Shown piece by piece: positions 9,967 through 10,825 of a stretch of 13,750 nt of DNA. Each line of letters opens with the position of its first letter. Position 1 is the first letter of the stretch. Source of the stretch: a virus; UHGV virus genome UHGV-0152983; one strand, given 5' to 3'. The notes beneath the pieces are model-generated. The model saw only the letters and a list, made by a program, of their open reading frames with translations, was not told the DNA's origin and searched no databases. The translations under genes were made by a program, and so were the position numbers.

Positions 9967-10027
9967 CTTGTGTTGGTCGCCAGAAAATGAAATTAGGCAG
10001 CAAACCACTTATTTGAGAGGAATTAAT

Positions 10028-10651
10028 ATGTCATCAATCCGCTTAACTACGAGAATGAAAGAGAAAATCGCTCGTAACGCTTTAATTAAATCTGGGGTTT
10101 TCACTGAGCTTGAAGAAGTAACAAAGTTAAAGAACCAGCTTGCACTTGACGCCAGAGTTGTTGCGTTTGGCGGTAAAAAGAAAACTGAGGAAGTGGATCA
10201 GTTATCATCCAAGTTAATGGCTATAAGCGAAGAACTTGAAAAGCTGGGATGTTCATTTTACTCATGCGATGCCCGTTCAACTTCAATTTATCTGACTGTA
10301 TCTGGCAGAAGGGTTGGCTGGTATTCATATGGGAAAGACGGCAACGGCGAAGATATATTGCTCCCTACTCCGACCAAAGATAAATGCATGTTTAGCGCAG
10401 AACACGAAATAACAAAAAGGTTTGATGAAATCTGCGCATTGCAACAAAAACTTGAAGCCAAGAAAAAGGATATCGAATCAAATGTATGGGCTGCTTTGAA
10501 CTCAGTCACAACAGTTAAGCGACTTATTGAAGTTTGGCCTGAAAGCAAAGAGTTGCTACCAAAAGAAGCAGATAAAGCAAGTACAGCACTTCCTGCTTTA
10601 CGGGTAGAAGATTTGAATAAGATGATTGGACTTCCTTCCGAGGTCGCATAA
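10028..10651 (+). CDS. Hypothetical protein, 207 aa, first gene after N
   Basis: Internal Met (MSSIRLTTRMKEK...) of track ORF 9968..10651 with GAGAGG Shine-Dalgarno; AT-rich; no recognisable motifs; followed by a hairpin and a terminator. Confidence 0.55.
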   Translation: MSSIRLTTRMKEKIARNALIKSGVFTELEEVTKLKNQLALDARVVAFGGKKKTEEVDQLSSKLMAISEELEKLGCSFYSCDARSTSIYLTVSGRRVGWYSYGKDGNGEDILLPTPTKDKCMFSAEHEITKRFDEICALQQKLEAKKKDIESNVWAALNSVTTVKRLIEVWPESKELLPKEADKASTALPALRVEDLNKMIGLPSEVA

Positions 10652-10785
10652 TCGTCCTTTATTTTTGGCATAAACAACAGAATAAACACTGCACTGTGTA
10701 TTCATTCCAACGAGTGAATACACGGAGCAATGTCGCTCGTAACTAAACAGGAGCCGACTTGTTCTGATTGTTGGAAATCTTCTTT

Positions 10786-10813
10786 GCCCTCCAGTGTGAG
10801 GGCAATTTTTTTT
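10786..10813 (+). terminator. Rho-independent terminator in the PL operon (tL-like)
   Basis: GCCCTC (10786-10791) / GAGGGC (10798-10803) stem with 6-nt loop, followed by AATTTTTTTT (to 10813), immediately upstream of the next Shine-Dalgarno (GGAGG 10816-10820). Confidence 0.7.
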
Positions 10814-10825
10814 GATGGAGGATAT

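Follow-up and report, generated by a model that had tools for sequence, protein, structure and literature searches.

An Nmad5-family gene beside the antiterminator N in a lambdoid prophage: an annotated accessory gene and its tentative function

Introduction

The gene described here belongs to the Nmad5 family, "nucleotide modification associated domain 5" (Pfam PF18757), and the Nmad domains were reportedly defined in an NAR paper of 2013. In M6/YuA-like phages the Nmad5 gene adjoins a thymidine hypermodification cassette (PMC9476957). Dhillonvirus phages that escape Tmn carry either K216E or K296E in Nmad5, and reversion restores sensitivity; deletion of nmad5, assayed by spotting, brings no escape from Tmn, and cloning of the wild-type gene failed, apparently because of its toxicity (PMC11846954). 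In T2, Tmn is activated by RIIB, which has been described as an early replisome component (PMC13001434, a 2026 preprint). With regard to genome position, the closest described systems are lambda and phage 21, in which ral is followed by an intergenic spacer with a hairpin and a terminator.

The DNA analysed here (the window, 13,750 nucleotides of UHGV virus genome UHGV-0152983) covers the early region of a P22-like lambdoid prophage of E. coli. A sequence-only reading of this DNA had described the first gene after N as one with no recognisable family, closed by a hairpin and a terminator, and as a candidate anti-defence or host-takeover factor. We report that the gene is an already known and annotated accessory gene, in itself an ordinary finding, and compare its setting, conservation and possible function with those of its relatives.

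Genetic setting of the gene

On its plus strand the window carries, in this order, a cI-like repressor gene (6945-7658), two genes in the rex slot, a pL-like promoter, N, the Nmad5 gene, and then kil, erf, ssb and abc2; cro (6644-6844), cII (6206-6505), replication genes and an antirepressor gene are found on the minus strand. A promoter scan placed the pL-like sigma-70 promoter, which drives the early-left operon, at 9476-9504 (+), downstream of the repressor gene and the rex-slot genes, with TTGACG and GATACT spaced by 17 nt. The -10 hexamer GATACT is, we take it, identical to that of lambda pL. The antiterminator gene N follows at 9694-9966 (+; 90 aa; PF25694, PHROG 271). Its frame is open back to 9622, and PF25694 (N_peptide) matches residues 23-114 of ORF 9622-9966 with E=7e-32, which bears out the earlier placement of N immediately upstream of the gene; the ATG at 9694, which gives 90 aa as in the RefSeq annotation of E. 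coli CE10, is the likely start.

The window's own N is separated from the Nmad5 gene by the non-coding 3'-end remnant of a lambda-type N (9967-10016, +), which corresponds to the last 16 codons of that gene, encoding ...TCVGRQKMKLGSKPLI and a stop, and is the left border of the Nmad5 cassette. Of 80 related loci, 38 carry an intact lambda-type N that has the remnant sequence as its 3' end, 11 nt 5' of the Nmad5 ATG. The remnant marks a past recombination junction.

The Nmad5-family gene (10028-10651, +; PF18757 and PHROG 1965) starts with ATG 10028, ends with TAA 10651 and codes for 207 aa, and reading of the sequence confirmed the open reading frame as it had been proposed. A Shine-Dalgarno sequence, GAGAGGA, can be read directly at 10015-10021 (+), 6 nt 5' of the ATG, and the homologues all start at MSSIRLT. 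TTG 9968 was rejected as a start on both grounds, as it is merely the first TTG of the open frame. The gene is optional and co-oriented with the early operon. The terminator scan found no intrinsic terminator between pL and the Nmad5 gene, the first one being that at 10784, and Nmad5 is transcribed from pL together with N in the earliest leftward transcript. Since no intrinsic terminator stands between pL and 10784, N and Nmad5 should be made ahead of N-dependent read-through; Rho-dependent termination is conceivable.

Several other features of the window deserve mention in their own right. The next early-left gene, of the PHROG 1376 family (10826-11795, +; ~322 aa when intact), is split into 10826-11176 and 11151-11795 (ORFs of 116 and 214 aa) by an extra T near 11162, with GAAGAATCAGG as against GAAGAA-CAGG. 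The extra T is absent from all 18 related loci, each of which has a single intact PHROG 1376 gene, and the split in the window reflects either a pseudogene or an error in sequencing. As PHROGs 17211 and 21365 match the two halves over their whole length, other phages may carry split copies as well. Two genes with a 4-nt overlap of their ends occupy 7745-9249, in the slot between the cI-like repressor and pL that holds rexAB in lambda: one encodes a DUF6932 protein of 192 aa that matches the PADLOC candidate defence family PDC-M63A (E=2e-10), the other a protein of 309 aa that belongs to PHROG 18731 and has no Pfam match, and the two may be a prophage-encoded defence pair. On the minus strand, Rfam models match a C4 antisense RNA (84 bits) and the isrK Hfq-binding RNA (72 bits) at 1476-1674, along with the c4 a1b1 target element at 45.8 bits, just below its gathering score of 46.7. 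These RNAs lie upstream of the antirepressor gene (548-1234; ORF6N + P22_AR_C), with which they form a P1/P7-type antisense immunity module within the lambdoid prophage. A 203-aa HNH_3 + AP2-domain protein encoded among nin-region genes (2585-3196, -) is probably a homing endonuclease.

The downstream spacer

The intergenic spacer that follows the gene (10652-10825, +; ~170 bp) is the counterpart of the lambda ral-ea10 spacer. It aligns almost base for base with lambda J02459 33905-34086 and with the ral-ssb spacer of phage 21, and the segment is present in 331 phage records. The spacer RNA folds with -62.8 kcal/mol (z=-6.3 against shuffled sequence) and, because it folds so much better than the shuffles, is probably functional as RNA or DNA. 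Within it lies an extended stem-loop (10686-10733, +; inverted repeat I1, 22-nt arms, 82% complementary), the longest local inverted repeat in the window, which forms 14 pairs in the minimum-free-energy fold and is built around a core 9-bp stem, GTGTATTCA/TGAATACAC, at 10696-10704 and 10715-10723. This stem-loop is invariant in lambda, phage 21 and ev245 but for one loop base and one flanking base. Since a bare 9-bp hairpin is not rare in the window (five perfect ones, with 0.47 expected in shuffles), the significance of this hairpin rests on its length and conservation.

The intrinsic terminator detected by the scan is located at 10784-10813 (+) and consists of an 8-bp stem at 10784-10805 with five G-C pairs, a 6-nt loop and a run of T8; the next ATG after it is at 10826. 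The terminator upstream of ea10 presumably corresponds to lambda tL2a. The same terminator is annotated, on both strands, in phage 21 record OL657228. The hairpin (10696-10723) and the terminator had both been placed correctly in the sequence-only reading, but the view that they close this particular gene did not hold, as both belong to a shared lambdoid spacer. A gene-specific regulatory element was rejected on the same ground: hairpin and terminator mark a shared module boundary and are uninformative on the gene. An Rfam search of gene and spacer returned nothing credible, a match to the ToxT thermometer (E=0.36) being noise.

Family membership and distribution

The window protein matches PF18757 (Nmad5) with E=4.2e-71 and 239.7 bits (cutoff 27), and the match extends over residues 4-203 and model positions 1-206 of 206, that is, over the whole model. 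It is the sole Pfam match of the protein, which also matches PHROG 1965, a family of unknown function, with E=1e-81. RefSeq E. coli genes that are 100% identical at the DNA level already bear the name "Nmad5 family putative nucleotide modification protein", which is also the label of the homologues in a large protein collection. The earlier statement that the gene has no recognisable family is therefore set aside by a full-length match and by a name that existed before. A search of NCBIfam with the window protein gave no match, and neither did PADLOC at E<=0.01, a collection of defence models and not of anti-defence models.

The Nmad5 gene is found in 211 of 5,426 complete E. coli genomes in RefSeq. 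E. coli prophages, Kapi1, HK542, mEp-type phages and Stx phages have an identical or almost identical gene, the Kapi1 protein being 99% identical and those of HK542 and the Stx1a/Stx2a phages 93-95% identical. An exhaustive HMMER search yielded 2,315 Nmad5 representatives at 50% identity clustering, and the family is spread over lambdoid, P22-like, N4-like, Yua-like, Dhillonvirus and many uncultured phages. The median representative is 204 aa long and, among the 150 matches listed, nearly all are single-domain proteins of ~200 aa, a stand-alone architecture that the window protein shares with its 207 aa.

Predicted fold and conserved residues

An AlphaFold2 model based on 25 homologues (pLDDT 84.9, pTM 0.69) shows an N-terminal part of three long helices, then a small beta element at 86-100, a 32-residue helix at 127-158, further short helices at 163-182 and finally a tail of low confidence, a fold predicted to be a helical coiled coil without a catalytic signature. 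Searches against PDB sequences with phmmer and a profile HMM gave only E>0.3, with no solved relative beyond coiled-coil noise, and matches in BFVD, a set of predicted viral structures, were other Nmad5 proteins only. Profile and structure searches had been proposed as the means to check the gene: profiles placed it in Nmad5 and PHROG 1965, and the search for a solved structural relative was negative.

Residue conservation was derived from 151 diverse Nmad5 members. Conserved positions are R5, L6, I14, A18, G23, R43, G48, G49, G93 and V153 in the first part of the protein, and T162, L166, W170, P171, E172, E175, L176, P178, L188, P189, L196, N197, G201, L202 and P203 in the second. The only conserved polar residues among them are R5, R43, E172, E175 and N197, the others being G, P, W, L, I, A, V or T. 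Kept in at least 80% of the 151 members, and all present in the window protein, are R5, G48-G49, G93, T162, L166, W170-P171-E172, E175-L176, P178, L196-N197 and G201-L202-P203, and a conserved C-terminal motif can be written as WPE...LN..GLP. As this pattern lacks a catalytic-type residue set, it points to a structural or binding surface and not to an active site. Strong conservation coincides with low model confidence in the tail (184-207), which would be typical of a segment that becomes ordered only upon partner binding.

The window protein has a pI of 8.24 and a net charge of +1.6 (the Nmad5 family median pI is 7.7), and no transmembrane or hydrophobic segment was found in it, the Kyte-Doolittle maximum over a 19-residue window being 0.61 and the GRAVY value -0.34. 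A DNA mimic of the strongly acidic Ocr/ArdA type was rejected on account of pI and charge, and a SieB-type membrane exclusion protein on account of the missing hydrophobic segment and the low Kyte-Doolittle maximum.

A mosaic cassette under purifying selection

The extent of the cassette was read from a sample of 80 IMG/VR loci with Nmad5 proteins 93-100% identical. Homology with the window across these loci begins at ~9900-10000 and ends at ~10800, and the window's N is common to only 11 of the 80 loci and the downstream gene to ~18. The upstream neighbour is a lambda-type N in 38 loci (with an 11-nt gap), Ral in 8 and the window's N type in 7; a further 13 loci have one of two other N types there, and the remaining loci other small genes. 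Nmad5 is thus a mosaic cassette that stands behind at least four N types or ral. Of 67 unique alleles, 66 are intact. The pN/pS ratio is 0.30, and variable sites number 45, 39 and 85 at codon positions 1, 2 and 3, with the third position enriched; the gene is under purifying selection. In Stx2a phages it is split by a 1,309-bp IS3-family element, IS629-like (OrfA 108 aa, OrfB 296 aa), which occupies 1696-3004 in the Stx2a phage LC616058 at a position equivalent to ~10131-10134 of the window, and Nmad5 is therefore dispensable in these phages.

The occupants of the slot were surveyed in a sample of 103 IMG/VR loci with the spacer hairpin. Just 5' of the spacer, 45 of these have ral, five sieB alone, 11 Nmad5 (two of them also ral) and 42 something else. 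The early-left slot of ral and sieB to which the gene had been assigned thus stands as a variable N-to-ea10 slot, but the gene is not a mere alternative to ral, which lies directly upstream of it in 8 of the 80 loci. The protein itself shows no Ral-type sequence, and Nmad5 remains its only Pfam match. As a separate observation, an Abc2 module is present in 43 of 58 Nmad5-positive and 13 of 35 Nmad5-negative spacer loci (Fisher p ~1e-3, uncorrected for relatedness), and lambda Exo/Bet/Gam in 4 of 58 and 13 of 35, respectively. The association of Abc2 with Nmad5 is probably lineage linkage and not functional evidence.

Contexts of Nmad5 in other phages

In all the contexts surveyed, Nmad5 is part of an early operon and often lies in a module for replication or for nucleotide metabolism. 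Among 78 diverse loci, about 33 share the order unknown ~300-aa protein, DUF2800 PD-(D/E)XK nuclease, Enc34-type SSB, Nmad5 and family A DNA polymerase, and in three further loci of the 78 the order is cI, Nmad5 and the same SSB-polymerase module. As their SSBs are 56-95% identical, the 33 loci represent one or few lineages. Within the Enc34-SSB lineage Nmad5 is present in 30 of 80 loci. The gap between SSB and polymerase is itself a hot spot for cargo, empty in 11 loci and occupied by Nmad5 in 24 and by a 507-aa SIR2-like protein in seven; the latter matches the PADLOC candidate defence gene PDC-S25 (E=3e-159). Other cargo in this gap includes opposite-strand membrane proteins, DUF2303 and a Bro-N protein.

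Elsewhere the neighbours vary. The N4-like phage Pollock has the order thymidylate synthase, Nmad5, gp42-like, primase and SSB, and in YuA the gene sits between the hypermodification cassette and genes for a dU hydroxymethylase and DNA polymerase. In a Pam3-like contig Nmad5 lies between a family A DNA polymerase gene and genes for an exonuclease and of the PurZ type (2-aminoadenine genome); in another contig Nmad5 overlaps an Rv2179c-like (PF16473) gene by 4 nt, with a family A polymerase next. Nmad5 adjoins helicase and primase genes in Jilinvirus and Eiauvirus. In an Aeromonas prophage it belongs to an operon after cI, two genes upstream of Dam and a C5 methyltransferase, and in ~9 enterobacterial loci its upstream neighbour is a dATP/dGTP pyrophosphohydrolase gene. 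An association with modification genes is thus seen only in some lineages, and no such gene is present in the 13.75-kb window.

Possible function

We tentatively favour a reading in which Nmad5, without being an enzyme, serves early on as a helical adaptor to the phage machinery of DNA replication or recombination or to the DNA intermediates of that machinery. The conserved C-terminal surface, T162-x-K-R-L-x3-W170-P-E-x2-E-L-x-P ... L196-N-x3-G-L-P, would be the site of contact; partner binding would take the place of catalysis, and the partner would come from DNA metabolism. The remainder of the operon in the window (kil, erf, ssb, abc2), the placement in replication modules in several lineages, the missing catalytic signature, the link to Tmn and RIIB and the alignment of Dhillonvirus K296 with R165 of the window protein all argue for an adaptor. 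Against it count the partly non-independent synteny and the optional nature of the gene in the SSB lineage (30/80), as do the lambdoid phages, which use the host polymerase and mostly do without Nmad5 (11/103 spacer loci have it), the IS-split copies in Stx2a phages, and the fact that a Dhillonvirus nmad5 deletion could be constructed and still be assayed by spotting (PMC11846954). An optional and mobile gene that has been joined to at least four N types, with only the spacer travelling along, would also fit an anti-defence or host-takeover role, in which the protein, an immediate-early accessory factor, would bind and neutralise some component of the host or be sensed by it. This component could be a defence system such as Tmn, a nuclease or a host replication protein, and the role would resemble that of ral, gam and abc2 in the same operon. 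Such a role is almost as likely as that of an adaptor. It is in keeping with the slot shared with ral and sieB, co-transcription with N ahead of the first intrinsic terminator, dispensability as seen from the IS629-like insertion in Stx2a phages, alternation with cargo that includes the SIR2-like PDC-S25 candidate defence gene in the Enc34-SSB lineage, and linkage to an Abc2-type module (43/58 vs 13/35, p ~9e-4, uncorrected for relatedness). Escape from Tmn by point mutation and not by deletion of Dhillonvirus Nmad5, with a wild-type gene that could not be cloned, points the same way (PMC11846954). However, the protein resembles no known anti-defence protein and matches no PADLOC model (these being defence models), it is not acidic (pI 8.2) and so no DNA mimic, and it has no transmembrane segment. 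Its fixed spot in replication modules across virulent N4-like and Yuavirus lineages would be unusual for counter-defence cargo, and the Tmn result speaks of an interaction with a defence and not of its inhibition. Of the original proposal of an anti-defence or host-takeover candidate, the slot, the optional nature of the gene and the Dhillonvirus Tmn data thus speak in its favour, and the lack of a match to defence models against it. Homology to a housekeeping phage protein, which the sequence-only reading had named as counting against its proposal, is approached by the presence of Nmad5 in the replication modules of many other phages without being reached.

The name of the family suggests a component of a base-modification pathway, perhaps as a subunit that binds DNA or targets the modifying enzymes. 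The neighbourhood of the thymidine hypermodification cassette in M6/YuA-like phages (PMC9476957) fits such a role, as do the PurZ-type genes nearby in the Pam3-like contig, the Dam and C5 methyltransferase genes two genes downstream in the Aeromonas prophage and the upstream dATP/dGTP pyrophosphohydrolase in ~9 enterobacterial loci. Neither the 13.75-kb window nor most of the contexts examined contain a modification enzyme, however, and with no catalytic-type residue set and a fold unlike that of any solved enzyme this role appears improbable. To our knowledge, lambda-like phages do not hypermodify their DNA. The label "DNA modification enzyme" in PMC11846954 derives from the domain name only. 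That the gene is a decaying, functionless passenger in this prophage, as the frameshift in the neighbouring gene and the IS-disrupted copies in Stx2a phages might suggest, is very improbable in view of 66 intact alleles out of 67, a pN/pS of 0.30 with third-position variation enriched, a good Shine-Dalgarno sequence and a family conserved in 2,315 clusters. The favoured adaptor and the anti-defence role are compatible and could coincide, for example in the protection of replication intermediates. A broader proposal, drawn by analogy with RIIB and in our view unlikely, would be that Nmad5 proteins are widespread immediate-early factors on the replication/recombination apparatus, whose C-terminal WPE/LN..GLP surface is read by Tmn-like membrane NTPases or used by the phage to evade them. 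If true, the lambdoid copy beside N would make a genetically tractable model of a new interface at which host immunity meets the phage replisome. The family name is probably misleading: a lambdoid Nmad5 in a modification-free context, without a catalytic signature and with a Tmn-escape residue in the most conserved motif, calls for caution in annotation, and lambda and P22 genetics offer an easy system in which to find the real function of Nmad5.

Comparison with known systems

At the level of sequence the window protein does not differ from PF18757 and PHROG 1965, as it gives the same full-length single-domain match and has all family-wide positions. The difference from the family at large lies in the surroundings, since the nucleotide-modification gene clusters that form the contextual basis of the family name are absent around the window gene.

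With Ral and SieB of lambda, Nmad5 has in common its place in the pL operon and the conserved spacer, with hairpin and terminator, that comes next. It has neither sequence nor predicted structural similarity to Ral or SieB. Ral is a protein of 66 aa and can be encoded directly upstream of Nmad5. It differs from SieB in that SieB is encoded on the opposite strand and in that Nmad5 has no hydrophobic segment. The terminator is near-identical in sequence to that of lambda, with T8 in the window and T6-A-T after the stem in lambda, but the downstream gene differs.

The Nmad5 proteins of the Dhillonvirus phages PhiSMS22 and PhiSMA8 share the C-terminal half and its motif with the window protein (31% identity over residues 104-203, tblastn), and K296 aligns with window R165 in the most conserved helix, T-x-K-R-L-x3-WPE. 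They differ in being annotated with 334 aa, with an N-terminal extension and insertions, and in being encoded on the opposite strand among head genes. In SM_S22, nmad5 (3296-4300, annotated 334 aa) overlaps an opposite-strand head scaffolding gene by ~200 nt, and its true start is probably further downstream, as only residues from ~81 align with the family. Tmn defence persists after deletion of Dhillonvirus nmad5, so that Nmad5 can at most be called a candidate Tmn trigger. Nmad5 and RIIB, compared here by description and not by sequence, differ in that Nmad5 has no predicted membrane segment. They are alike in being early phage proteins with a link to the replication apparatus, and for each of them single substitutions are enough to abolish Tmn defence.
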